64,000 bases of DNA from the IMG/VR virus record IMGVR_UViG_3300003320_000367, positions 4,819 to 68,818 of that record; one strand, given 5' to 3'. How positions within the stretch are numbered: the stretch's first letter is position 1; each line of letters starts with the position of its first letter. This DNA is from a virus. Its lineage: Duplodnaviria > Caudoviricetes. The position numbers were made by a program, and so were the translations under genes. Shown here piece by piece: positions 4,816-58,000 of the stretch. The notes below the pieces were generated by a model. That model worked only from the letters and a program-made list of their open reading frames with translations. It was not told the DNA's origin and ran no database searches.

Positions 4816-5862
4816 ATGGCCGAGCGCATCGACGCCGAGAAGCTGCTGGAGCTCGTGCAGCAGAAGCAGATTGACGCCATTGCCTCCATCGAGGACAAGG
4901 CGATCAAGGCTGCAACCGAGAAGCGGTATGCTGCCATCGACAGTGCCGTGCGCTCGGCCACGCTCAACTGGATCAAGGAATTCGGCTCCATGTCGGCCGA
5001 TGGGTCGGGTCCTGCACTCAACAAGATGATCAGCGATGCGTTGGGTGCGAGCAACAGCGCGCTCAAGGGGCTGGAGGACTCGGTCATCTCGTCCCTCTCA
5101 GAAGCCGTAGGCAGCGCTGTAACGACCGCGCAGGAGCAGGGCAAGGCTTTCGTTGAGGGTGCGACCGGCAAGTCGGCAGCGGCCAAGGTAGCCGTTCCTG
5201 CTGTCGATCTCGCGGAAGAGCGCGCGGCCGTGCGGGCTGCCGTGTCCGAAAGCGAGAAGGGCTTCAAGGCGCTCCTGAAGCGCAATGTTGTTGAGCGACT
5301 CGGCCTGCGAGGAATCCTGTCCGGCCTCACGCATGCACGCAACGCGCTGAACCGGGCCAAGTCAACGATCACGACGTCTGTGAACAACAACGTTCAGAAA
5401 ACGATGCACGCCACAGCCACGGCCAACAAGGCTCCGATGGAGGTCTGGGTTGCTGAGCGAGATGCCTGTGTGAATTGCCTGAAGTATGCAGGCCAGGTGG
5501 TGAAGCGTGGCGAGGACTGGGTTGGCGGGCAGTCGTGGGATCCGAATCAGGTGGACAAGAAGGCAAAGGGAGTTCGTCCTCCCTTGCATCCACATTGCCG
5601 ATGCAGGCCAGTCCCATGGAATCCAGCGTGGGCCAAGCCTGGCGAGGTAAGCTTGCCGGACGCGGTCAGCCGAGAGGCGCAAAGGTCCATCGCAAGAGGA
5701 TTCTCACTACCATCGGAATCCAATGCCAGCAGGATCAGGGCGTTGAAGGAATTGCTGAAGGGCAATCCCGACCTCCCCAAGACCGTGCTCGAAAGGGCTC
5801 GCCGAGATTTGAAGCGTGGCGAGTTCGGTCGGGGCAGGAGTGTTCCTACATCGAACCCGTGA
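4816..5862 (+). CDS. MuF-like head morphogenesis (minor capsid) protein
   Basis: WVAERDACVNC and PPLHPHCRC motifs; between portal and scaffold. Confidence 0.82.
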   Translation: MAERIDAEKLLELVQQKQIDAIASIEDKAIKAATEKRYAAIDSAVRSATLNWIKEFGSMSADGSGPALNKMISDALGASNSALKGLEDSVISSLSEAVGSAVTTAQEQGKAFVEGATGKSAAAKVAVPAVDLAEERAAVRAAVSESEKGFKALLKRNVVERLGLRGILSGLTHARNALNRAKSTITTSVNNNVQKTMHATATANKAPMEVWVAERDACVNCLKYAGQVVKRGEDWVGGQSWDPNQVDKKAKGVRPPLHPHCRCRPVPWNPAWAKPGEVSLPDAVSREAQRSIARGFSLPSESNASRIRALKELLKGNPDLPKTVLERARRDLKRGEFGRGRSVPTSNP

Positions 5863-9720: not shown

Positions 9721-10130
9721 TGAGCGCAACAGCCGAGGCTCCCTTCAACGACTTGCAGGCCGCGCTTTACACTGCGCTGAACGGCGTCATATCGGCCGGT
9801 GTATACGACGACGTGCCTGAGCGAATCACCAAGCCGTATGTCACAATTGGCGAGGTATTCGGAACGCCAGATAACTGGCATGGCGGATTTGGCTGGGACA
9901 TCCTGGCCACGATCCACGTGTGGACAAAGTCACGCGGATTCAAGTCCGCACTGGATGTCGCGAACGAGATCATCGCGGCGCTGGACCACAAGCGAACGGC
10001 TCTCACGCTGCCAGCGACATGGTCCATAGTTTCAATCCGATTCGTGCAGCTCCAGACGCTGCGCGACCCGGACCCCGAGATCCGCCACGTGCCGGTACAA
10101 TTCCGGCTAGTGATTCATCAGGAGGTGTGA
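9720..10130 (+). CDS. tail terminator (DUF3168-like)
   Basis: VYDDVP...PYVTIGE and IHVWT motifs; precedes the major tail gene. Confidence 0.82.
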   Translation: MSATAEAPFNDLQAALYTALNGVISAGVYDDVPERITKPYVTIGEVFGTPDNWHGGFGWDILATIHVWTKSRGFKSALDVANEIIAALDHKRTALTLPATWSIVSIRFVQLQTLRDPDPEIRHVPVQFRLVIHQEV

Positions 10131-48981: not shown

Positions 48982-49550
48982 GACGTGAGCTTGGCGTAGC
49001 AGGTGTCCCCGATGCCGCGCTCTCGGGTGTGCTTCTGCGTCAGCGGCGAGCCGCATCGTCCACACGTGCCCACGTTCAGACCGAACAGAGCGAACGCGGC
49101 GACCGGGTCCTTGGCGATCCGCTTGAGGATCTTCTCGGGCCGGTAGATGCGCTGCATCTTGAAGTCGCCAGGCGCTCCGGTCAGCTCCCACAGGATGCGG
49201 TGTCGCGTCCCGCCGATGGCGTAGAACCGGATGTCGTCGTCGTCCTCGTTGCGCAGAGCATACTTGCCGTTGTCCACCTTGGCGAACAGCTCCTCGCGAG
49301 AGGCTCCAGCGTTGGGCTGCTTGAGCATCTTGCTCAGGAAGTCGCCGATCTCGCGCAGGCTCAGCCCGGCGATCATCAGGTGGTAGTCCTCGTCGCTCAT
49401 GTCCTTGTGCTCGGGGAGGCGAACCTTCTCGCGACCCAGGGCCTGCGCCAGGGACATCTGCTTGGGACTGGGCTGGCCCGGCCTGCTGGCGAAACAGGAC
49501 CGGACCTGAGCCACGCTGGCGTGCTCACCCTTGCAGTTACCGCACCTCAT
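48978..49550 (-). CDS. DUF6011-like Zn-ribbon protein
   Basis: N-terminal CGNC..H; C-terminal CGRCGSPLT...RGIGDTC. Confidence 0.7.
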   Translation of the reverse strand: MRCGNCKGEHASVAQVRSCFASRPGQPSPKQMSLAQALGREKVRLPEHKDMSDEDYHLMIAGLSLREIGDFLSKMLKQPNAGASREELFAKVDNGKYALRNEDDDDIRFYAIGGTRHRILWELTGAPGDFKMQRIYRPEKILKRIAKDPVAAFALFGLNVGTCGRCGSPLTQKHTRERGIGDTCYAKLTS

Positions 49551-50527
49551 CAGCCGATCGCCTTCCTTCCACCGCCAACGCGGTCCTGGCCGATGTCGGC
49601 GGTGCGACCGTCGCGCTGGCCACGCTCGTACGCCTCGCCCACAAGGCTCTGCCTGTAGCCCTTGCCGTCCTTGTGTCCGAGCAGCTTCTTGAGCTCGTCC
49701 ATCATGTCCTTGACGGCCTTGTTACGGTCGTACAGAACGAGCTCTGCACCGGACGTCGCGGCAACCTGCTGCTCGCGGTACTTCCGCAGCTCGTGGAACC
49801 GGCGACGAACCTCGTTGAGGAAGCCCTGTGCGTAGGACCGCTGGAAGGTCACGGGCGACTGCACGGCTCGGTATGTGTCGCCGATCTCGGAGCACCAGCG
49901 CTTGCAGGCTCGGATCAGGCGACCGCCGTCCTTCTTGCCCTTGCCGGCATCGTCCACCTCCCAGGGCGTGATCTCCCAGCCGGGTCCGAGCGGCAGCCCG
50001 AGCTCCGTGGCCTCGTGATACGCCTGGTTCATCAGGTGCGCGATGTTCCGCCACTTGATCCCAGCCTCGTGCAGGATGTAGACGTTCTCGTCGTAGCTGA
50101 GCTCCTTGATCGGCTTGGGGTCCAGCTTCTGGAGCGCCTGGAGGCGCAGCGAGGTGTACACCATACCGACCAGCTCGATGTTGGACGGGAACCCGACGAG
50201 GTATCCGGTTCCATTGGTCCATCCGAGGAACTGGCAGTCGTAGTGCTCGGCCACGGCGATGATCAGGTTGTACCACTGGTTGCCCAGCTTGTCGTTTGCC
50301 GGCATGAACTCGAAGACGACCTTGTCCGGCGTCTCGACCTTGCCACCGGCGATCTTGCGGGCCTCGGCGAGCATGGCCGCGTCGATCGCGTACTTCTGCA
50401 TGAGCTGCTCGGCCTTGGCGAGGTACGCATCGCGCTCCGCCGGGTTGTCCGTCCCGTCCGCCTTGTTGAGGACGGCCTGGATGCGAGCGAGCATCGGGTT
50501 GGTCTGCTGCTTCTGGTTCTCGATCAC
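49550..50527 (-). CDS. DUF2786-family protein
   Basis: LARIQAVLNKADGT...ERDAYLAKAEQLMQKYAID; SYAQGF. Confidence 0.8.
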   Translation of the reverse strand: MIENQKQQTNPMLARIQAVLNKADGTDNPAERDAYLAKAEQLMQKYAIDAAMLAEARKIAGGKVETPDKVVFEFMPANDKLGNQWYNLIIAVAEHYDCQFLGWTNGTGYLVGFPSNIELVGMVYTSLRLQALQKLDPKPIKELSYDENVYILHEAGIKWRNIAHLMNQAYHEATELGLPLGPGWEITPWEVDDAGKGKKDGGRLIRACKRWCSEIGDTYRAVQSPVTFQRSYAQGFLNEVRRRFHELRKYREQQVAATSGAELVLYDRNKAVKDMMDELKKLLGHKDGKGYRQSLVGEAYERGQRDGRTADIGQDRVGGGRKAIG

Positions 50528-50543
50528 GATTGCGAATCTCCTC

Positions 50544-50600
50544 AGGACTCGTCAGCACCGGCACCTTACCGGCGGACCTCCTTCTCGGAGGTTTCGTCCT
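50544..50600 (-). ncRNA. type II hammerhead ribozyme HH-H
   Basis: AGGAC GAAA CCUCC gagaa GGAGG UC| CGCCGG uaaggug CCGGUG CUGACGA GUCCU; predicted cut after 50575. Confidence 0.9.
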
Positions 50601-50614
50601 AGGCTGAGGATGGA

Positions 50615-50764
50615 TCAGAAGAAGATGGCCCAGATGGCCAGCCCGGCGATGGTCATGCCGCCAAGGAACGCCAGGGCCAGGATGCCAGTCATGATCAGGC
50701 AGCACCCCTTGCCGTCGCGGTCCATGTCGTGCTTGTCCCACCAGTTCTTCATGAAGCTGGCCAT
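50615..50764 (-). CDS. small membrane protein
   Basis: Single TM segment; coupled start. Confidence 0.55.
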   Translation of the reverse strand: MASFMKNWWDKHDMDRDGKGCCLIMTGILALAFLGGMTIAGLAIWAIFF

Positions 50765-51081
50765 CAGGGGCGGAACTCCTCGTCGATCTCGTCGAGCTTG
50801 TGCTCCAGCTCGTCGAGGCGCTCGGGGCGCAGAGCCCTCACGTCCTCTTCGAGAGCGTCGGCCTCTCGCTCGGGTAGCTTGGGGTCCGACATGAGCATGG
50901 TCAGGATCTTGCGGATGCAGCCCCAGCACGAGAGCAGCCCCATGGGGTACCACTCGCCAGCTTCCGGGGTGATCTCCGGATCGTCCAGATCACGAGGGAT
51001 GCAGCAGACAGCCGCCTTCTCGTGGCACAGATAGCAATTGGACCCGCGTTGCGCCGGGCTGACGCACACCTCTGGCTTCAC
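50764..51081 (-). CDS. Cys-rich hypothetical protein
   Basis: CYLC...CCIP...CWGC. Confidence 0.6.
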   Translation of the reverse strand: MKPEVCVSPAQRGSNCYLCHEKAAVCCIPRDLDDPEITPEAGEWYPMGLLSCWGCIRKILTMLMSDPKLPEREADALEEDVRALRPERLDELEHKLDEIDEEFRP

Positions 51082-51362
51082 CGGATCGCCTCCCACAGCG
51101 GCTTGGGGGCGTACGGGTTGTAGTCCGACCACGAGCTGACCTGGTCGGTGGCGACCCAGACTGCCTTGCGCTCGGGCTCTCTGAGCTCGCCCTCGACGTG
51201 GTCGCTCAGCTCCTCGCCGGAGATGACGCCGACGACCGCGCCAGTGAGCGGGTAGGTCGGCTGGATGCAGGCAAGTACCTCCACCTCGCTCGTGTCGACG
51301 TCGGACGCCTTGAGGTCCTCCTGGATCTCCAGGAGCTTCTCGATGAGTTCGTCCAGCTTCAT
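51078..51362 (-). CDS. hypothetical protein
   Basis: GGAGG SD adjoining hammerhead HH-G; MKLDELIEKL. Confidence 0.75.
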   Translation of the reverse strand: MKLDELIEKLLEIQEDLKASDVDTSEVEVLACIQPTYPLTGAVVGVISGEELSDHVEGELREPERKAVWVATDQVSSWSDYNPYAPKPLWEAIR

Positions 51363-51378
51363 ATGCAAGATCCTCCAC

Positions 51379-51453
51379 GATCTCGTCAGCAGCCGCACCA
51401 TACGGCCGGACGCCCGTCCCACGGCTGGCAGCCGCGTTCCGAGCGTTTCGATC
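51379..51453 (-). ncRNA. type II hammerhead ribozyme HH-G
   Basis: GAUC GAAA CGCUCG...CGGGCG UC| CGGCCG uauggug CGGCUG CUGACGA GAUC; predicted cut after 51409. Confidence 0.9.
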
Positions 51454-51562
51454 TGGGGTGGAGGTCACCCTCTCTGCGACCTTGCGTAGGCCACAGCGAG
51501 GGCGATGGTTAATAACCAGAACCACAGCCCCGAGAGGTCTGGTCTGGGCCTGTGATTCACGT

Positions 51563-52045
51563 TCAGTCCTTCGTCTCGACGAACCCGGCCTCGTCCGTTC
51601 CGAAGTCGCTCGGAGCGTTCTCATCCCGGATACCGTACTCGCGCCGACGCTTGACCTCCTCGGCTGACACGAGCGTCATCTGGCGACCCTTGAAGTCGAT
51701 GCCGATGTCGTACCGCGCCTTGAGCTCGTGTACCAGCCACGCCGGGTTGATCCACAGCGGCACGTACATCTTTCCGTCGTTGCAGAGCTCGATGTACGCG
51801 GCCTTGAGCAGGTCGTCGCATCCCATCTCGCGGAGCGTCTTGGGCAGCTCCATCATGTCCGGGGTCGGGTCGGTGTTGCACCAGCGCAGGTTCCAGTCGA
51901 CCTCGTCGTTGTCTGCATCGCGCAGCCGCAGCCGGTTGATCGCGTCGTTGGCCTTGTCCTGGTCGGTGAACACTGCGAAGTGCTCCTCGCGGTCCTCCTC
52001 GACCAGGACCTTGTAGATGTTCCAGACCGTCGACTCGGTTTCCAT
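51563..52045 (-). CDS. hypothetical protein
   Basis: GAGGAGG SD adjoining HH-F; METESTVWNIY. Confidence 0.75.
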   Translation of the reverse strand: METESTVWNIYKVLVEEDREEHFAVFTDQDKANDAINRLRLRDADNDEVDWNLRWCNTDPTPDMMELPKTLREMGCDDLLKAAYIELCNDGKMYVPLWINPAWLVHELKARYDIGIDFKGRQMTLVSAEEVKRRREYGIRDENAPSDFGTDEAGFVETKD

Positions 52046-52058
52046 GCATCCTCCTCGG

Positions 52059-52120
52059 GGACTCCTCAGCAGCGCCATCCAGCGCCGGACCATCGGGGCC
52101 GGAGCCCCTAGGTTTCGTCC
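52059..52120 (-). ncRNA. type II hammerhead ribozyme HH-F
   Basis: GGAC GAAA CC..GGGGC uccg GCCCC..GG UC| CGGCGC uggaug GCGCUG CUGAGGA GUCC; predicted cut after 52088. Confidence 0.87.
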
Positions 52121-52180
52121 TTGCCCCAGCACCCCGGCCGGAGGACTCGAAGTCTCTCCGACCGGGGGCGTCATGGGGTG

Positions 52181-52645
52181 TTACTTCTTGGTGGCCGCCG
52201 TCCGCCGGGTGCGCCGGGCGGTGGTCGCCTTCTTGGGCTCAGGAGCGGCCTCCGTGGCCGCCTCCGCGCCGTTCTCGCCGTCGCCCTCAGCGGTGGGCTC
52301 GGCGTCCGCCTTCGGGGCCTCAGCGGGCTCCTCGGGCTTCGCCTCGTCCTTCTGCTCGCCGCCCTTGAGCTTGGCGAGCTCCGCCTCCAGCTTGGCCAGC
52401 TTCCGAGCCTTGGCCTCCTCCGCCTTCTTGGCGGCCTCAGCCTTGCGCTCGGCGAGAGCCTTCTGGTTCTCCTCGCTGGACTGGAAGTCCATCCGCATGG
52501 TGACGGCGAGCTGGACCGTCTTCAGGTCCGGGGTGTAGCCCGTCTTCTCCTCGATCCACTTGGCGAACGCCTTGTGGAGCTCGGTGGGCTCAGCGGCCGC
52601 ACGCTCAGCGAAGGTCTTCTTGCTGGGGGTGGTGTTCTCGGCCAT
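52181..52645 (-). CDS. hypothetical protein, paralogue 2 of a 3-member family
   Basis: PTELHKAFAKWIEEKTGY...KTVQLAVTMRMDFQSSEENQ plus K/A/E tail. Confidence 0.8.
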   Translation of the reverse strand: MAENTTPSKKTFAERAAAEPTELHKAFAKWIEEKTGYTPDLKTVQLAVTMRMDFQSSEENQKALAERKAEAAKKAEEAKARKLAKLEAELAKLKGGEQKDEAKPEEPAEAPKADAEPTAEGDGENGAEAATEAAPEPKKATTARRTRRTAATKK

Positions 52646-52661
52646 GGTGTTTCCTCCTTGG

Positions 52662-52725
52662 GGACTCATCGGCACCGGCATCCACCGGCGGACGAGCAGC
52701 GCTTCCCAGCGGGCTCGTTTCGTCC
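52662..52725 (-). ncRNA. type II hammerhead ribozyme HH-E (variant core CCGAUGA)
   Basis: GGAC GAAA CGAGC...GCUCG UC| CGCCGG uggaug CCGGUG CCGAUGA GUCC; predicted cut after 52691. Confidence 0.78.
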
Positions 52726-53148
52726 TTGTTGTTGATGAGTGCCGGCATCTCCTCAGCTTGTTGAGGGTTGCGGTTGCCGGCATACCGTCCACCTTTCGAC
52801 TTCCTGGCCAGAGGTGCCCCGAGCGGGGTGTCTCACTTGACCCAGGCTTGAAGAGGTGGAGTTCGTCGCTCGCTAGCAGCTTTCAGTACCGCCCGGATGT
52901 GTGCGCTTCCTCCACCCGCAGTGGGTGGCGGCTGCCCGTCCTCGGGAAGTCCAGTCGCTTCGCTCGCAACTACCGGTTTTGGGGAGTCCGGTTCCTGTCT
53001 AGAGTCAGCGGCCAGGACCAGGGTCCTGTGCGCGATCTCAGCCGTCTCTCTTGGCTGTCCTGCTCGGGTTCGCGGTCTTCGGGCGGAACCTCGACCCTCG
53101 GCCAGACCGGCCATCCGGGGAGTTCGTTCCTTGCCCTCGTCGCTTCCT
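52692..53148 (-). ncRNA. candidate structured non-coding RNA B (promoter to HH-E cut)
   Basis: No SD-led ORF; 5' part homologous to 57582-57675. Confidence 0.55.
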
Positions 53149-53155
53149 GAGTAGA

Positions 53156-53185
53156 ACTATGCGCCATATCCGGGTCCGAGGCAAC
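53156..53185 (-). promoter_or_regulatory. putative early promoter GTTGCC-N18-CATAGT
   Basis: Matches the repeated right-arm promoter family. Confidence 0.65.
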
Positions 53186-53352
53186 TCAGCCCCTACCTGG
53201 TCATTCACCGTGTTTGACCAGGTAGGAGCATGTGCAAACTTCGTGGAACTTTTTTCGACTTTTTCTATTTCCGCAGGCCGGCATGAGTGCGACGCGTCAT
53301 GGGGTGAATCGGGCGAACCATATCGTCAACGGCGATTCACCCGGCCTCCGGC

Positions 53353-53754
53353 CTACCAGCAGCCGGTGTGGATGGGCGTGAACTTGAGGTTCTCGTCCTC
53401 CGCCTTGAACAGCGCCTTGGTGTAGTCGGTCTTCCGCACGGTGTACCAGACGTCGTCGTCCTTGGCGGAGCCATTGACGTTGTCCAGCTCCACGCAGTAC
53501 AGCGCGGGCTTGGCCCTGCGATCGACGACCTTCTTCCAGCTGGTCACAGTCTTGTAAGACTTGCACTTGCCGGCAACCTTGCGCGTGCAGACGCGCTCGG
53601 TCTTCTTCTCCCTGTGGCTCTTCTCCTTGACGGCGGCCACGTGCCTGACATCGTCGCGGTCGCCAGACACCGGCTTCTGCGCGGGTGCACTGGCGTCGCA
53701 CGCCACGGCCGCAACCATCACAGCGCCAACCAGCACTGCGTTCCTGATCCTCAT
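53353..53754 (-). CDS. putative lipoprotein
   Basis: MRIRNAVLVGAVMVAAVAC lipobox-like signal. Confidence 0.7.
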   Translation of the reverse strand: MRIRNAVLVGAVMVAAVACDASAPAQKPVSGDRDDVRHVAAVKEKSHREKKTERVCTRKVAGKCKSYKTVTSWKKVVDRRAKPALYCVELDNVNGSAKDDDVWYTVRKTDYTKALFKAEDENLKFTPIHTGCW

Positions 53755-53770
53755 GCTGTTCCTTCGCTCG

Positions 53771-53959
53771 TTACTTCACGATGTTGTACGAGACGACGAC
53801 GTGCTTTGCAGCATCTTCGGCGATCATCTCTCGCACCCGCTCGTCGCGGTCCTCTGGGAGGATCGCCTCCCAGAGGTGCTTCGGAATCCTGAGCCAGCCC
53901 TTCATGGTGGTGGCTGCCGGTCCGTAGCCGATCTCAAAGTGGACCTCGATGTCGTCCAC
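53771..53959 (-). CDS. small hypothetical protein
   Basis: AAGGAG SD before GTG. Confidence 0.6.
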   Translation of the reverse strand: MDDIEVHFEIGYGPAATTMKGWLRIPKHLWEAILPEDRDERVREMIAEDAAKHVVVSYNIVK

Positions 53960-54066
53960 ATTCGGCTCCTTCGGCCGTAGGTGGCCCATAGCGGGCTCGG
54001 GAGCGCCCCGGCCTCCCAAGGGGATGACCGGGGCGCGTTCGGCCCTTACGTGGCCGCGTAGGCCCG

Positions 54067-54435
54067 CTAGAGAGCCTTCAGGGCGTACAGCCGGTTCTGC
54101 TCGTCGCGCACGACCAGCGATCCGTCCTGCATCTCGCCGACCTGCTCGAAGAGGCCGAGGGACTTGCCGGCATCCGGGTTGCCCTTCTCTGACACGTCCG
54201 GCTTGGTGTCGGCCTCCAGGCGCCAGCTGTTGCCGGCAGAGATGACCGTGATGTCCATCCGCTCCATCAGCCGTCGCATGACGTTACGCACGGAAGCCTG
54301 GTGAGCCTCCGGCGGAAGCGCGTTCATCAGCTCGTGCACGGTGACGATGCGACCCCGGTTGGCGAGCATGAACTCGACAACGCGGGGCTCGACGACGATG
54401 CGCTTGCGACCCTCTGCGGGCTTGCCACGAACCAT
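54067..54435 (-). CDS. hypothetical protein, possible winged helix
   Basis: CCCCAAGGAGG SD; VTVHELMNAL...SVRNVMRRL. Confidence 0.7.
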   Translation of the reverse strand: MVRGKPAEGRKRIVVEPRVVEFMLANRGRIVTVHELMNALPPEAHQASVRNVMRRLMERMDITVISAGNSWRLEADTKPDVSEKGNPDAGKSLGLFEQVGEMQDGSLVVRDEQNRLYALKAL

Positions 54436-54455
54436 GGTGCAGTCCTCCTTGGGGA

Positions 54456-54848
54456 CTAGTTCTCGTACTTGACGTGCTCGGCCGCGTCGGTGGCCGCGTA
54501 GGTGTTGTTCTTCGGGTTCAGGACGATCCAGCGCTGGCGCTCCAGGCCAGCCCAGACCGCAGCCCGCTCCAGCTCGTTGAGCCTGCCGCCCTTGGTCACC
54601 TCGGCCTCGTGCTCGGCCACGGCGAACAGGAACAGGGCTCGCAGGTCCATCAGCGAGTATCGCGTGGCCAGTGCGTGGCGGACGTGCGGGCGAGTCTCCT
54701 CGCGCTTCGACTTGGAGCCGAGCCGGTACATCGCCAGCTGGTACTCGGTCGCGAAGTCGAGATGGTCCGCGAACGTCTGCGGGTTGAGCGGGACGCCTAC
54801 GGTCTCGGCGTCGAACGCCACTTGGATCCTGTGCTTCCGGTCGTACAC
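54456..54848 (-). CDS. hypothetical protein
   Basis: AAGGAGG SD adjoining HH-D. Confidence 0.75.
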   Translation of the reverse strand: MYDRKHRIQVAFDAETVGVPLNPQTFADHLDFATEYQLAMYRLGSKSKREETRPHVRHALATRYSLMDLRALFLFAVAEHEAEVTKGGRLNELERAAVWAGLERQRWIVLNPKNNTYAATDAAEHVKYEN

Positions 54849-54862
54849 TTGGTCCTCCTTCG

Positions 54863-54915
54863 GGACTCTTCAGGAGCGTCATCCAACGCCCGACCTCCTT
54901 TCGGAGGTTTCGTCC
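54863..54915 (-). ncRNA. type II hammerhead ribozyme HH-D
   Basis: GGAC GAAA CCUCC gaaa GGAGG UC| GGGCGU uggaug ACGCUC CUGAAGA GUCC; predicted cut after 54892. Confidence 0.9.
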
Positions 54916-54919
54916 TTGT

Positions 54920-55105
54920 CTACAGTTCGGACATGACCAGCAGAATGCACTCGTCGCTCATGAACGGAAACTCCCGCTTGATGGCGTCGAACACGAGCTG
55001 CTGGTCCTGGGTCAGCGCCTGCGCCTCCTGCGTCGGCTCGGGATCAGCGCGGCGATCAGCTCGCCCAGAAGGTCTGCGAGCAAGTCGATGAAGAACACCG
55101 CGCAT
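54920..55105 (-). CDS. small hypothetical protein
   Basis: ATG coupled to the upstream TGA. Confidence 0.5.
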   Translation of the reverse strand: MRGVLHRLARRPSGRADRRADPEPTQEAQALTQDQQLVFDAIKREFPFMSDECILLVMSEL

Positions 55106-55266
55106 CACTGCCCCGCCGGAGGACCGTACAGGTCCATCGCGTCGGCGTCCGGCGGCTGGACCTGCTGCTCGGGCGTGTGCCCTCGGACCTCCTGCTGGAT
55201 GACCGGGTCGGCCTCCGGCGGAGGAGCCGCCTCGTGCCCGCCGTGGGACTTGGGGATGCCGCTCAC
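55105..55266 (-). CDS. small disordered P/Q/E-rich peptide (below ORF-track cutoff)
   Basis: AAGGAG SD, GTG start; MSGIPKSHGGHEAAPPPEAD... Confidence 0.45.
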   Translation of the reverse strand: MSGIPKSHGGHEAAPPPEADPVIQQEVRGHTPEQQVQPPDADAMDLYGPPAGQ

Positions 55267-55493
55267 TTGTCACTCTCCTTCTTGGCCTTGGCCAGCGGGA
55301 TGAGGAGCCCCTGCTCGCTCATCGACACCATCTTGCAGAAGCTGACGATCTCCTTGATGACGCGCGGAGGCGCGCTGTGGATGACGACGTAGTCCTTGTT
55401 GACCACTCCGTCGAAGATCGCGAACGTCGACATCTTGATCAGTCCGTCGGCGTTCATGATGTAGTCGTACACAGCCTTGCGGTCGTTGTCCAT
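55263..55493 (-). CDS. hypothetical protein
   Basis: CCCCAAGGAGG SD; MDNDRKAVYDY. Confidence 0.7.
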   Translation of the reverse strand: MDNDRKAVYDYIMNADGLIKMSTFAIFDGVVNKDYVVIHSAPPRVIKEIVSFCKMVSMSEQGLLIPLAKAKKESDK

Positions 55494-55513
55494 GGGGTGT
55501 CCTCCTTGGGGAC

Positions 55514-55828
55514 TCAGTTGACCGGGTCGACCCGGTCGAGGTAGCGACGGAGCGCGGCGCGCACCGACTGAGGCTTGACGCCGTAGGAGCGCGCTAGGCG
55601 ACCGACGGAGTGGCAGTCGCCGCCCTCCTTGAGGAACGCGCCGTAGAGCTGTGCACCGGCCAGCGGGAGCCTCTTGTAGGGCCGAGGCTTGTGGCCTTTG
55701 CGGAGCAGCACCTTCCGGATGGTGCTCTCGTTGACGCCGAAGTGCCTCGCCGTCCGCGAGTTGTTCTGGCCGTGTTCGCGCCACGCCTTGACGACCTCGT
55801 CGTCGCTCGGCAGCGGGATCAGACCCAT
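55514..55828 (-). CDS. tandem helix-turn-helix DNA-binding protein
   Basis: NNSRTARHFGVNESTIRKVL and SVGRLARSYGVKPQSVRAAL. Confidence 0.72.
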   Translation of the reverse strand: MGLIPLPSDDEVVKAWREHGQNNSRTARHFGVNESTIRKVLLRKGHKPRPYKRLPLAGAQLYGAFLKEGGDCHSVGRLARSYGVKPQSVRAALRRYLDRVDPVN

Positions 55829-55842
55829 GGAATCCTCCTTGG

Positions 55843-55895
55843 GGACTCATCAGGAGTGCCATCCAGCACCCGACCGGTCGAAGCCGGTTTCGTCC
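55843..55895 (-). ncRNA. type II hammerhead ribozyme HH-C
   Basis: GGAC GAAA CCGG cuucga CCGG UC| GGGUGC uggaug GCACUC CUGAUGA GUCC (canonical core); predicted cut after 55872. Confidence 0.93.
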
Positions 55896-55914
55896 TTGTG
55901 TGCAAGCCGGCATG

Positions 55915-56220
55915 TCATCGGCCGATGGTGCCGCGCTCCATCTCGCGCTTGCGATAGTCGGCTGCGGCGTCCAGGCACGGCGTGCGGTTCTTCTTGAGGT
56001 CCTGCACAGCCTGCCAGATTGCGCCGGAGTAGTTCCAGCCCGCGCTCAGGTTCATCCGGGTGTGCGCCTCGGCGACAGCCACCGTGCGCTGCCCCGGCGT
56101 GAGCTCGCGCAGGATGGGCGCAGCCGCCCGGTTGCCACGGTGCGTCGTCTGGTTCTCCCACTCGTCGAGCTGCTCATCGGTGATGACGCGCTCGCCAACC
56201 TGAGGCTTGTTCGTGGTCAT
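55915..56220 (-). CDS. hypothetical protein
   Basis: GAGGAGG SD adjoining HH-B. Confidence 0.75.
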   Translation of the reverse strand: MTTNKPQVGERVITDEQLDEWENQTTHRGNRAAAPILRELTPGQRTVAVAEAHTRMNLSAGWNYSGAIWQAVQDLKKNRTPCLDAAADYRKREMERGTIGR

Positions 56221-56234
56221 GTGGTCCTCCTCGG

Positions 56235-56306
56235 GGACTCGTCAGTACGGCGATCAGCCGCAGACGGCCCGCCCTCCCCTGGCTGGGGAGTCGGGCCGTT
56301 TCGTCC
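56235..56306 (-). ncRNA. type II hammerhead ribozyme HH-B
   Basis: GGAC GAAA CGGCCCG...CGGGCCG UC| UGCGGC ugauc GCCGUA CUGACGA GUCC; predicted cut after 56263. Confidence 0.9.
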
Positions 56307-56317
56307 TTCGAGGTTGC

Positions 56318-56920
56318 TTAGTCGTCCAGCGCGGGGCAGCAGGGCTTGGCGTTGTAGGCCATGTAGTTGTCCTTCAGGCTGCTCTCGCCCGAGTCGATCA
56401 TGTCCGAGTAGATCAGGTGGGTCAGCTCGGTGTGGCTGCTGACCTGCGCGGTCTCCTTGGAGAAGCCCTTGGCCTTGGTCATCTTCTTCAGGTCGGCGCA
56501 GCCGAACTTGTGCACCTCGGGCTCGCCGTTGCCGTAGACCACGGTCAGCTTCTGGACCGGACCCGGCTCCTCGGTCTTGGCCTCCTCGGCGACCGGCTCG
56601 ACCTCCTTGGGCTCCTCGACCGCCTCGGCCTGCTCGCCACGGAGCTTCGCCAGCTCGGCCTCCAGCTTGGCCTTCTTGCGCTCGGCCGAAGCCTTCTTGC
56701 GGGCCGCAGCCGCCGCCTTGCGCTCAGCCAGCGCCTTCTGGTTCTCGGGGGAGGCCTGGAAGTCCATCCGGAGGACGGTCACCAGCTGGACCGTCTTCAG
56801 GTCGACCCGGACGCCGGTCTGAACGAACAGCCACTCAGCGAAGTCCTCGTGCAGCTGGGTCGGAGCCTTGGCCGCGATGGCCTCGTAGTTCTTCGGGGTC
56901 TTGTTGGTGTTGGCAGCCAT
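56318..56920 (-). CDS. hypothetical protein, paralogue 3 of a 3-member family (extra C-terminal Cys/His domain)
   Basis: PTQLHEDFAEWLFVQTG...KTVQLVTVLRMDFQASPENQ; VHKFGCAD...PCC. Confidence 0.8.
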   Translation of the reverse strand: MAANTNKTPKNYEAIAAKAPTQLHEDFAEWLFVQTGVRVDLKTVQLVTVLRMDFQASPENQKALAERKAAAAARKKASAERKKAKLEAELAKLRGEQAEAVEEPKEVEPVAEEAKTEEPGPVQKLTVVYGNGEPEVHKFGCADLKKMTKAKGFSKETAQVSSHTELTHLIYSDMIDSGESSLKDNYMAYNAKPCCPALDD

Positions 56921-56963
56921 GGGGTCCTCCTTGGGGACTTCGTCGGTTGGCCTTACAGTAAGA

Positions 56964-56993
56964 ACTATACTCCATTGCAGCCGGCATGGCTAC
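56964..56993 (-). promoter_or_regulatory. putative early promoter GTAGCC-N18-TATAGT
   Basis: Repeated promoter family. Confidence 0.75.
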
Positions 56994-57064
56994 TCTGGAG
57001 TGGAACTTTCTTGCCGGCACAGCCGGGGAGCTGGGGGCTCCCCGGCTGGCCGTCGCGCCTTGCC

Positions 57065-57268
57065 TCAGCGCTGGATCTCGTCCGGACCCGGCGTGCCGAG
57101 CGGGTTCTCGACCTGGATCAGGTCGGTGCCCTCGGCCCCGGTGGGCTGCGGCCGGTCGGTGATGCGGCTGTTGTCCGCGTGGTTCCCCGACTGGCCACCC
57201 TGGCCCTCGTGCTGCGTCCCGTTCGGCGGGTTGCTCGCCTGCGGTACGCGCTTCGGCAGGATGCCCAT
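57065..57268 (-). CDS. small disordered hypothetical protein
   Basis: AAGGAGG SD adjoining HH-A. Confidence 0.65.
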   Translation of the reverse strand: MGILPKRVPQASNPPNGTQHEGQGGQSGNHADNSRITDRPQPTGAEGTDLIQVENPLGTPGPDEIQR

Positions 57269-57282
57269 CGTGTTCCTCCTTG

Positions 57283-57346
57283 AGACTCCTCAGGACCGCC
57301 GTTCAGCGGCCGACAGCCAGCGTCTCCCGACGGGGCTGTTTCGTCT
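57283..57346 (-). ncRNA. type II hammerhead ribozyme HH-A
   Basis: AGAC GAAA CAGCC...GGCUG UC| GGCCGC ugaacg GCGGUC CUGAGGA GUCU; predicted cut after 57312. Confidence 0.9.
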
Positions 57347-57678
57347 TGTGTGTTGCGAGGGCGTCGGTGGGACCTACCATCCGCTCCGCCCTCTCGCCAG
57401 GCCCTTGCGCCTTGCCAACCTCTCGGATGTTCTCTCGTGGGGTGGCTGGTTCCGTGTCTCCCTAGCCAGTCCCGCGTCCGTCCCCGAGGAGTTGCGCGCT
57501 ACTACCCTGTCTACCAGTTTTCTTGTGGTGGGTTGGTGCCCAGTCTCCGAGATTGCATTTCCTGCTTCCGACCCCTCGCACGGCCGCCTTGCTCGGTGTT
57601 CGCGTTCTTCGGGTGGAGCCTCGACCGTCGGCTGGAGTCGCCGTCCCGGGAGCTTCGCTCGCCGCCCTCTCGCTTACA
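57313..57678 (-). ncRNA. candidate structured non-coding RNA A (promoter to HH-A cut)
   Basis: No SD-led ORF; homologous to 53053-53146. Confidence 0.55.
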
Positions 57679-57684
57679 GGAACT

Positions 57685-57714
57685 ATCATGCTCCATATCC
57701 ACGGGAAAGGCAAC
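57685..57714 (-). promoter_or_regulatory. putative early promoter GTTGCC-N18-CATGAT
   Basis: Variant of the promoter family with TGGAG before the -10. Confidence 0.6.
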
Positions 57715-58000
57715 ACGGCGTCTACCTGGTCAAACATGATGAATGCCCTGGTAGGAGGCTTGCCGGCATTTCGAAAGTTTTTTGAAGAATCTTCGTTTGA
57801 CCAGGTAGACCTGAGGATGGGCTGGGCGCGGCCCTACGTGGCCCGTAGGCGGCTCCGCGCGGGCTCTCGGGCCCAACGGGGCTCGGGCCGGTCCTACGGC
57901 CGTTACGCGGCCACGTAACGGGCATGCCGGCATGCGAGCGCCCGAACGCGAGAGAGCCCCGCTCCCTGAGTGGGAACGGGGCTCGGGCCGGTTGGCCGGA

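Follow-up and report, generated by a model that had tools for sequence, protein, structure and literature searches.

Two hammerhead ribozymes of a Streptomyces phage with the ribosome-binding site of the next gene paired in an extended stem II: possible activation of translation by self-cleavage

Can a hammerhead ribozyme that lies between two phage genes hide the ribosome-binding site of the second gene until it cuts itself? The question arises from a 64,000-nucleotide stretch of DNA (positions 4,819 to 68,818 of the IMG/VR virus record IMGVR_UViG_3300003320_000367; from here on the window), which belongs to a Streptomyces phage with 63% G+C and in which a core-motif scan revealed eight hammerheads (HH-A to HH-H), all on the minus strand, and nothing convincing elsewhere. 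The original prediction, made from the sequence alone, was that in three of them, HH-G, HH-H and HH-B, the 5' flank pairs with the downstream Shine-Dalgarno (SD) sequence, that the uncut fold thereby masks the SD, and that cleavage and release of the 5' product expose it. For HH-G and HH-H the masking helix is conserved and covaries in relatives, and we consider it highly probable that the SD:anti-SD structure is real and under selection; for HH-B the pairing exists in the window and is absent in the orthologues. Activation of translation by cleavage is the best explanation that we can offer for HH-G and HH-H as a whole, and one on which, going by models of folding, we are evenly divided.

HH-G and the gene behind it consist of the following parts:

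51458-51464, minus strand: anti-SD strand CCUCCAC, the 5' strand of the stem II extension
51454-51457, minus strand: 5' internal loop CCCA, the CCA of which can pair with UGG of loop I (pseudoknot)
51383-51453, minus strand: ribozyme body (stem II 5' strand, GAAAC, stem III hairpin, GUC, stem I hairpin, CUGACGA)
51450-51453, minus strand: stem II 5' strand GAUC
51396-51402, minus strand: loop I UAUGGUG
51379-51382, minus strand: stem II 3' strand GAUC, directly followed by the SD strand
51372-51378, minus strand: SD strand GUGGAGG, then 9 nucleotides to AUG
51078-51362, minus strand: downstream gene, 94 amino acids, AUG at 51360-51362

The corresponding parts of HH-H are:

50606-50610, minus strand: anti-SD strand UCCUC
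50601-50605, minus strand: 5' internal loop AGCCU, the GCCU of which can pair with AGGU of loop I
50549-50600, minus strand: ribozyme body (stem II 5' strand, GAAAC, stem III, GUC, stem I, CUGACGA)
50596-50600, minus strand: stem II 5' strand AGGAC
50562-50568, minus strand: loop I UAAGGUG, with AGGU at 50563-50566
50544-50548, minus strand: stem II 3' strand GUCCU, directly followed by the SD strand
50539-50543, minus strand: SD strand GAGGA
49550-50527, minus strand: downstream gene, 325 amino acids, GUG start at 50525-50527, with DUF2786 and DUF7168 (phrog_421)

In RNA order HH-G reads 5'-CCUCCAC-CCCA-GAUC-(core)-GAUC-GUGGAGG-3', an extension of 7 bp beyond a weak stem II (GAUC/GAUC, 4 bp), and HH-H reads 5'-UCCUC-AGCCU-AGGAC-(core)-GUCCU-GAGGA-3', its contact between AGGU of loop I and GCCU of the internal loop including one G.U pair. 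The sequences and positions on which the original prediction was built (CCUCCAC against GUGGAGG, the CCCA loop and UGG with CCA in HH-G; UCCUC against GAGGA, the AGCCU loop and AGGU with GCCU in HH-H; CCUCG against CGAGG in HH-B) all proved correct. The three ribozymes share the conserved core of type II hammerheads (CUGACGA, GAAA and GUC), and when they were folded from the upstream stop codon to the start codon, both the minimum free energy and the centroid structure were a three-way junction closed by the extension, with fold z-scores of -1.5 (HH-H), -2.7 (HH-G) and -3.9 (HH-B). In the predicted active folds of HH-G and HH-H the SD is thus base-paired within the extension of a ribozyme stem.

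The two ribozymes differ from their neighbours in where loop I finds its partner. In the majority form of type II hammerheads the pseudoknot partner of loop I follows directly on the 3' side of stem II (Perreault et al., 2011; PMC3088659). HH-C to HH-F have this published layout, GUCC being followed by CCA or CCG, which pairs with UGG of loop I, and then by AGGAGG; HH-A and HH-B have a similar 3' tail, but their loops UGAAC and UGAUC show no evident partner. In HH-G and HH-H there is no CCA-type partner 3' of stem II, so that the majority-form pseudoknot is absent: the SD abuts stem II, the partner of loop I lies in the internal loop on the 5' strand, and stem II crosses this loop of 4-5 nucleotides into an anti-SD:SD helix of 5-7 bp.

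How much of this could be fortuitous? Random 20-mers from the phage reached the observed helix length with P values of about 0.06 (HH-G), 0.07 (HH-H) and 0.15 (HH-B) in a liberal, single-window test that allowed bulges of 0-6 nucleotides; chance is therefore not negligible within the window alone. Permuting flanks within the clade does not discriminate either, as these flanks have anti-SDs in common. We accepted the extension of HH-G and HH-H nevertheless, because of what is seen in relatives. The region from 50000 to 58000 of the window is 81-85% identical to nine GenBank Streptomyces phages (Lizz, ShakeNBake, PHTowN, Rooney, Gibson, phiRKBJ001, Wentworth, Dryad and Yara), and pattern scans of IMG/VR added seven related contigs, which led to a sample of 91 non-identical type II hammerheads in 16 related genomes or contigs. 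Loop I has the sequence GUANGGY in 22 of the 91, namely the orthologues of HH-G and HH-H, one further family in locus L128 and one ribozyme of Yara. An extension of at least 4 bp is present in 20 of these 22 and in 3 of the 69 others (Fisher P 6e-15, the sequences being related and hence not independent samples); for at least 5 bp the counts are 16 of 22 and 1 of 69, the one being HH-B of the window.

The order of the elements is constant across the relatives: stop codon, 0-4 nucleotides, anti-SD, a loop of 4-6 nucleotides with [A/G/C]CC, stem II, core, stem II, 0-2 nucleotides and SD strand. Loop I GUANGGY can pair with [A/G/C]CC on the 5' strand, and a helix of 4-7 bp lies beyond it. The helix changes sequence and remains paired. 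UCCUC(A):(U)GAGGA is found in the window, Lizz, Dryad and L135, CCUCG:CGAGG takes its place in phiRKBJ001 and UUCCUC:GAGGAG in L056, while UCCC:GGGA in L230 and L128 is a compensatory change relative to UCCUC:GAGGA; at the +1 pair of the helix the window has A-U where phiRKBJ001 has G-C. In the G family CCUCCAC, CCUCCGC, CUCCAC or UCCAC faces GUGGAGG, CCACCAC also occurring among the orthologue anti-SDs, and the third family of L128 has UUCUCC:GGAGGA. This last ribozyme (minus-strand index 4525, plus-strand coordinates 9960-10044) precedes a third gene family, encoding an 85-amino-acid protein, and has the same architecture (UUCUCC-AACCA-GGUC...GACC-GGAGGA), with no stop codon within 26 nucleotides upstream.

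The covariation of the extension was scored in two sub-alignments split by the length of the internal loop, because MAFFT placed the 5' flanks out of register. Across 26 sequences of the G/H class, stems I, II and III are paired in 99.7% of 337 cells and 6 of their 13 pairs change on both sides (slid controls 27-41%), in support of the type II layout of three helices, of which stem II alone is open and the other two end in loops. In the extension the four central pairs are 91-100% paired, three of these columns showing two or three pair types and the fourth being an invariant C-G, and two-sided changes are seen in 5 of 7 extension pairs (at most 51% pairing in slid controls of the whole structure). 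HH-G and HH-H belong to a clade-specific subclass of type II hammerheads, of which HH-B is not a member, and the 5' internal loop with its closing helix is a second layout of the tertiary contact in this type. The idea that the bulge can contact loop I is borne out to this extent: the complementarity is present in both ribozymes and the arrangement is conserved in relatives.

HH-B has to be judged differently, its row being:

56229-56313, minus strand: HH-B with extension, CCUCG (56309-56313) pairing with CGAGG (56229-56233), AA/C mismatches between

The RNA reads 5'-CCUCG-AA-GGAC-(core)-GUCC-C-CGAGG-3' with an extension of 5 bp. We rejected this extension because no CCUCG is present in the orthologues of HH-B from Lizz, Rooney, phiRKBJ001 and Wentworth, and regard it as probably fortuitous and specific to the window. 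Another candidate, UCCUCC upstream of HH-F, pairs with the SD in an unconstrained fold but forms part of a hairpin that resembles a terminator, and the orthologues do not conserve it; it was rejected as an anti-SD.

What might the masking helix of HH-G and HH-H do? In the uncut active fold the SD would be unavailable to the 30S subunit. Cleavage is predicted after C17 (position 51409 in HH-G, between 51409 and 51408; position 50575 in HH-H, between 50575 and 50574), which in both lies between stem III and stem I, so that the 5' product would take the anti-SD with it and the 3' product would retain the SD; the topology originally proposed, in which the cut separates the two strands, thus holds for these two ribozymes. 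The products, then joined only by stem II, the extension and the pseudoknot, would separate within seconds to tens of seconds; the SD would become accessible, possibly displayed in the loop of a new hairpin of the 3' product, and translation of the downstream gene would be favoured on the processed RNA. Ribosomes terminating on a small open reading frame (ORF) upstream would open the same helix, and both routes would probably act together.

Calculations with ViennaRNA at 30 °C, which give rough values and ignore pseudoknots, are in line with these steps. From precursor to 3' product the mean unpaired probability of the SD increases from 0.32 to 0.66 in HH-G and from 0.20 to 0.65 in HH-H. The predicted binding of the two products to each other is -5.8 kcal/mol (HH-G) and -10.5 kcal/mol (HH-H), corresponding to off-rates of roughly 10^2 to 3x10^-2 per second if an on-rate of 10^6 per M per second is assumed; since this binding is weak, release within the lifetime of an mRNA is plausible. 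That cleavage measurably raises downstream translation is likewise plausible from the models, with about as much to be said for it as against it.

In the predicted 3' products the last bases of the core and the 3' strand of stem II pair with the segment just after the SD, and the SD lies in a hairpin loop of 6-7 nucleotides (HH-H: CGAGUC-CUGAGGA-GAUUCG, 50533-50551, minus strand; HH-G: CGAGAUC-GUGGAG-GAUCUUG, 51366-51385, minus strand). The partner strand of the H hairpin in L056, GACUUG, keeps all six pairs via two changes, and Yara has AGUC..GACU. Before cleavage the same pairing would compete with the active fold.

Several points weigh against activation by cleavage. The cost of fully opening the SD of HH-G is not lowered by the cut (5.8 versus 6.1 kcal/mol), because the new hairpin takes up part of the SD. 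Unconstrained folds also give gains in SD accessibility for HH-A, HH-B and HH-F, all without the conserved helix, and the thermodynamic contrast is therefore not specific. A fast hammerhead cuts within seconds of being completed, and masking may then not last long enough to have an effect. Within an orthologue family the SD strand hardly varies, which means that most two-sided changes lie between paralogous families, and all changes keep to SD-like and anti-SD-like sequences. Self-cleavage activity we infer from the conserved core. Finally, a point missed by the original prediction is that a small upstream ORF ends 0-4 nucleotides before the anti-SD, so that terminating ribosomes would unmask the SD without any cleavage. 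The two ORFs are:

51465-51560, minus strand: ORF upstream of HH-G, 31 codons, GTG start, one hydrophobic helix, UGA stop at 51465-51467
50615-50764, minus strand: ORF upstream of HH-H, 49 codons, membrane protein, UGA stop at 50615-50617

The stop codon directly adjoins the anti-SD in HH-G (gap of 0 nucleotides) and is separated from it by 4 nucleotides in HH-H; both lie within reach of a ribosome (about 10-13 nucleotides) of the masking strand, and the orthologues are similar. The ORF upstream of HH-H encodes a membrane protein according to the annotations of Lizz, Rooney and others. The one upstream of HH-G, which ends in ...LWFWLLTIALAVAYARSQRG before its stop codon, appears to be unannotated in the GenBank relatives examined; its C-terminus (..VAYARSQ(R/G)G, then stop) is kept via synonymous changes in Lizz, Dryad, L056, L088 and L133.

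Could the role of the extension be purely structural? The loop and the helix would then build the contact between stems I and II and clamp a short, open stem II, the SD being the sole sequence available as 3' strand in a compact operon; the ribozyme would cleave fast and constitutively, and masking would have no regulatory effect. We hold this to be possible though rather doubtful. It would account for a stem II of only 4 bp, in HH-G the weak GAUC/GAUC, for the minimal intergenic gaps, and for the lack of a general pairing between 5' flank and SD in 149 other phage type II hammerheads; contacts between a loop and an internal loop are known to speed up natural hammerheads, and type II forms use a pseudoknot (PMC3088659). 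Yet a stem II of 4 bp suffices without a clamp in six hammerheads of the same operon and in 69 of the clade, and the hammerhead of Yara that uses a 5' ACC for its pseudoknot has no closing helix, which means that the helix is not structurally required. A paired SD would, moreover, still hinder initiation until the strands part, and a dead ribozyme should still lower translation.

A second alternative, which we consider unlikely, is that the helix serves mainly to make translation of the downstream gene depend on termination at the end of the upstream membrane-protein ORF and that the ribozyme only processes the transcript. Helices that occlude an SD and are opened by upstream translation are a classical device of translational coupling, and the stop codon adjoins the anti-SD not only in the window: a UGA or UAG is found 0-4 nucleotides before the anti-SD in nearly all orthologues and inside the internal loop in L056. 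However, the downstream RNA no longer has an anti-SD once it is cleaved and dissociated, and coupling would be limited to uncut RNA or to products that are still paired. The third family of L128 lacks a nearby upstream stop codon, as described above, and hammerheads of the other class lie equally near to stop codons without having the helix.

A functionless, accidental match between flanks rich in C and U and SDs rich in purines, which the window probabilities of 0.06-0.15 per ribozyme and the unconserved extension of HH-B would allow, is very improbable for HH-G and HH-H, where it is contradicted by the conservation (20 of 22 against 3 of 69), the compensatory changes and the fact that the helix occurs together with a pseudoknot partner that has moved from the 3' tail into the 5' internal loop, and is the best reading of the HH-B sequence.

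We thus prefer activation by cleavage for HH-G and HH-H. In its most specific form, which we put forward tentatively and with somewhat more doubt than conviction, the start of translation would be gated by the ribozyme: translation of the downstream gene would have to wait until either the hammerhead has cut its own transcript or a ribosome has reached the end of the tiny membrane-protein ORF upstream, and the 3' product would then display the SD in a hairpin loop.

The setting of the two ribozymes is an operon that in the GenBank relatives is a leftward run of small genes, mostly hypothetical. The gene downstream of HH-G has no family match in Pfam or PHROG. The eight hammerheads, with the segments from GAAAC to CUGANGA, are:

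57342-57287, minus strand: HH-A
56302-56239, minus strand: HH-B
55891-55847, minus strand: HH-C
54911-54867, minus strand: HH-D
52721-52666, minus strand: HH-E (GAAAC to core CCGAUGA)
52116-52063, minus strand: HH-F
51449-51383, minus strand: HH-G
50595-50549, minus strand: HH-H

All eight have a stop codon (or a non-coding stretch) on their 5' side and the SD and start codon of the next minus-strand gene on their 3' side. HH-E is the only core exception. Its CCGAUGA (U4C) recurs in the orthologue of phiRKBJ001 (L003, 3759-3814) and in an IMG/VR relative (L068, near 540), and is for this reason a conserved variant rather than a private mutation. At the gathering threshold Rfam found no match in the window; in E-value mode five of the eight matched Hammerhead_II on the minus strand with 21.9-28.8 bits (E 0.03-1.9), all eight staying below the 37 bits of the RF02276 threshold. 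The low scores are due to insertions in stem III and to 3' tails that depart from the model, the core not being the cause. Judged by the core and helices in their sequences, the ribozymes are hammerheads despite these sub-threshold scores.

Two gene junctions without a hammerhead carry the 3' module of the ribozymes directly after the stop codon: UAG-UCCCCAAGGAGGA (54436-54455, minus strand) and CUGA-GUCCCCAAGGAGGA (55495-55515, minus strand). The GUCCCCAAGGAGG may be read as a shared, extended ribosome-binding module or as the footprint of lost ribozymes.

Is the apposition of hammerhead and ribosome-binding site peculiar to this clade? Among 243 non-identical phage type II hammerheads (IMG/VR loci L010-L251), 68% have, within the next 30 nucleotides, an SD-like motif and the start codon of an ORF that is 40 codons or longer, as compared with 5% of random positions on the same strand. 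Close apposition is therefore general, and phage type II hammerheads seem as a rule to be placed directly before a ribosome-binding site. Pairing of the SD as a general trait of this type was considered and rejected: the 149 hammerheads outside the clade that have a ribosome-binding site showed no enrichment over permuted flanks or upstream-control flanks, and other IMG/VR ribozymes with the same loop motif had no anti-SD.

Pairing between 5' flank and loop I outside the clade was not significant in a permutation test, though individual cases look convincing. In L053, L057, L139, L157 and others, the 4-5 nucleotides that immediately precede stem II, among which there is often a UAA stop codon, have their complement in loop I (CUAAC, GUAA and CGUAA versus GUUAG, UUAC and UUACG); pseudoknots on the 5' side may be common among type II hammerheads. 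Many hammerheads of low-GC phages (for example L018, L019, L021, L026, L037 and L041) have AUCAG right after stem II (CUGAUGA-GUCC-AUCAG), which is complementary to CUGAU of the core and could thereby fold into a competing hairpin that is inactive.

Hundreds of hammerheads are known in bacteria and phages. According to a review of 2019 more work is needed to define their purpose (PMC6765202). In HH-G and HH-H a conserved, covarying structure makes a physical connection between the active fold of the ribozyme and the site at which ribosomes bind for the next gene. A vague notion, that processing might influence how efficiently an mRNA is translated, thereby becomes a specific hypothesis that can be tested with mutants. 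Our literature searches, the coverage of which was incomplete, turned up neither a study of hammerheads in Streptomyces phages nor a natural case of an SD masked by a hammerhead. The layout with a 5' internal loop and a closing helix is scored poorly by current covariance models.

The closest natural relatives are the type II hammerheads that Perreault et al. found in 2011 clustered in prophage and phage operons (PMC3088659; Rfam RF02276). HH-G and HH-H resemble them in the core (CUGANGA, GAAA and GUC), in the copies that flank single genes of a phage transcript and in the Watson-Crick pseudoknot of loop I; they differ in that the partner of the pseudoknot lies in the internal loop of the 5' strand and that stem II resumes beyond it as the SD:anti-SD helix. 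The terms "Shine-Dalgarno" and "ribosome binding" do not occur in that paper, and neither there nor in the reviews that we found is a 5' internal-loop pseudoknot with an SD:anti-SD closing helix described, which is absence of evidence only.

Two other comparisons concern the contact and the helix. In natural hammerheads such as those of Schistosoma and sTRSV a hairpin loop contacts an internal loop that lies 4-6 bp from the core on the other stem. In HH-G and HH-H stem I has 6 bp and a loop of 7 nucleotides, and the internal loop comes after 4-5 bp of stem II; the contact, however, is predicted to consist of 3-4 Watson-Crick or G.U pairs rather than of non-canonical ones, and the roles of the two stems are mirrored. 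With coupling by SD occlusion they share an anti-SD just after the upstream stop codon that pairs with the SD of the next gene, but here a whole self-cleaving ribozyme lies between the two strands and would sever them.

The likeness to engineered hammerhead switches that was originally suggested agrees with what has been described for hammerheads that hide a ribosome-binding site. A construct with the site in an extended stem I expressed its gene only when it was able to cleave, an inactive core mutant giving no detectable expression (PMC3664830), and the principle of a ribosome-binding site within a hammerhead stem thus works in bacteria. In these platforms (the Schistosoma hammerhead and aptazymes), as in HH-G and HH-H, the site is paired within the extension of a stem and the cut separates it from the masking strand. 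The platforms are synthetic, of type I or III, and extended at stem I, whereas HH-G and HH-H are natural, of type II, extended at stem II with the tertiary contact built in, and without evident control by a ligand or a trans-acting RNA. Evolution thus appears to have arrived at the design principle of the synthetic hammerhead ON-switches. If the start of translation is indeed gated by the ribozyme, this would give a bacterial or phage hammerhead a concrete biological role, and HH-G and HH-H would be the first natural counterpart of the synthetic devices with a ribosome-binding site in a hammerhead stem.

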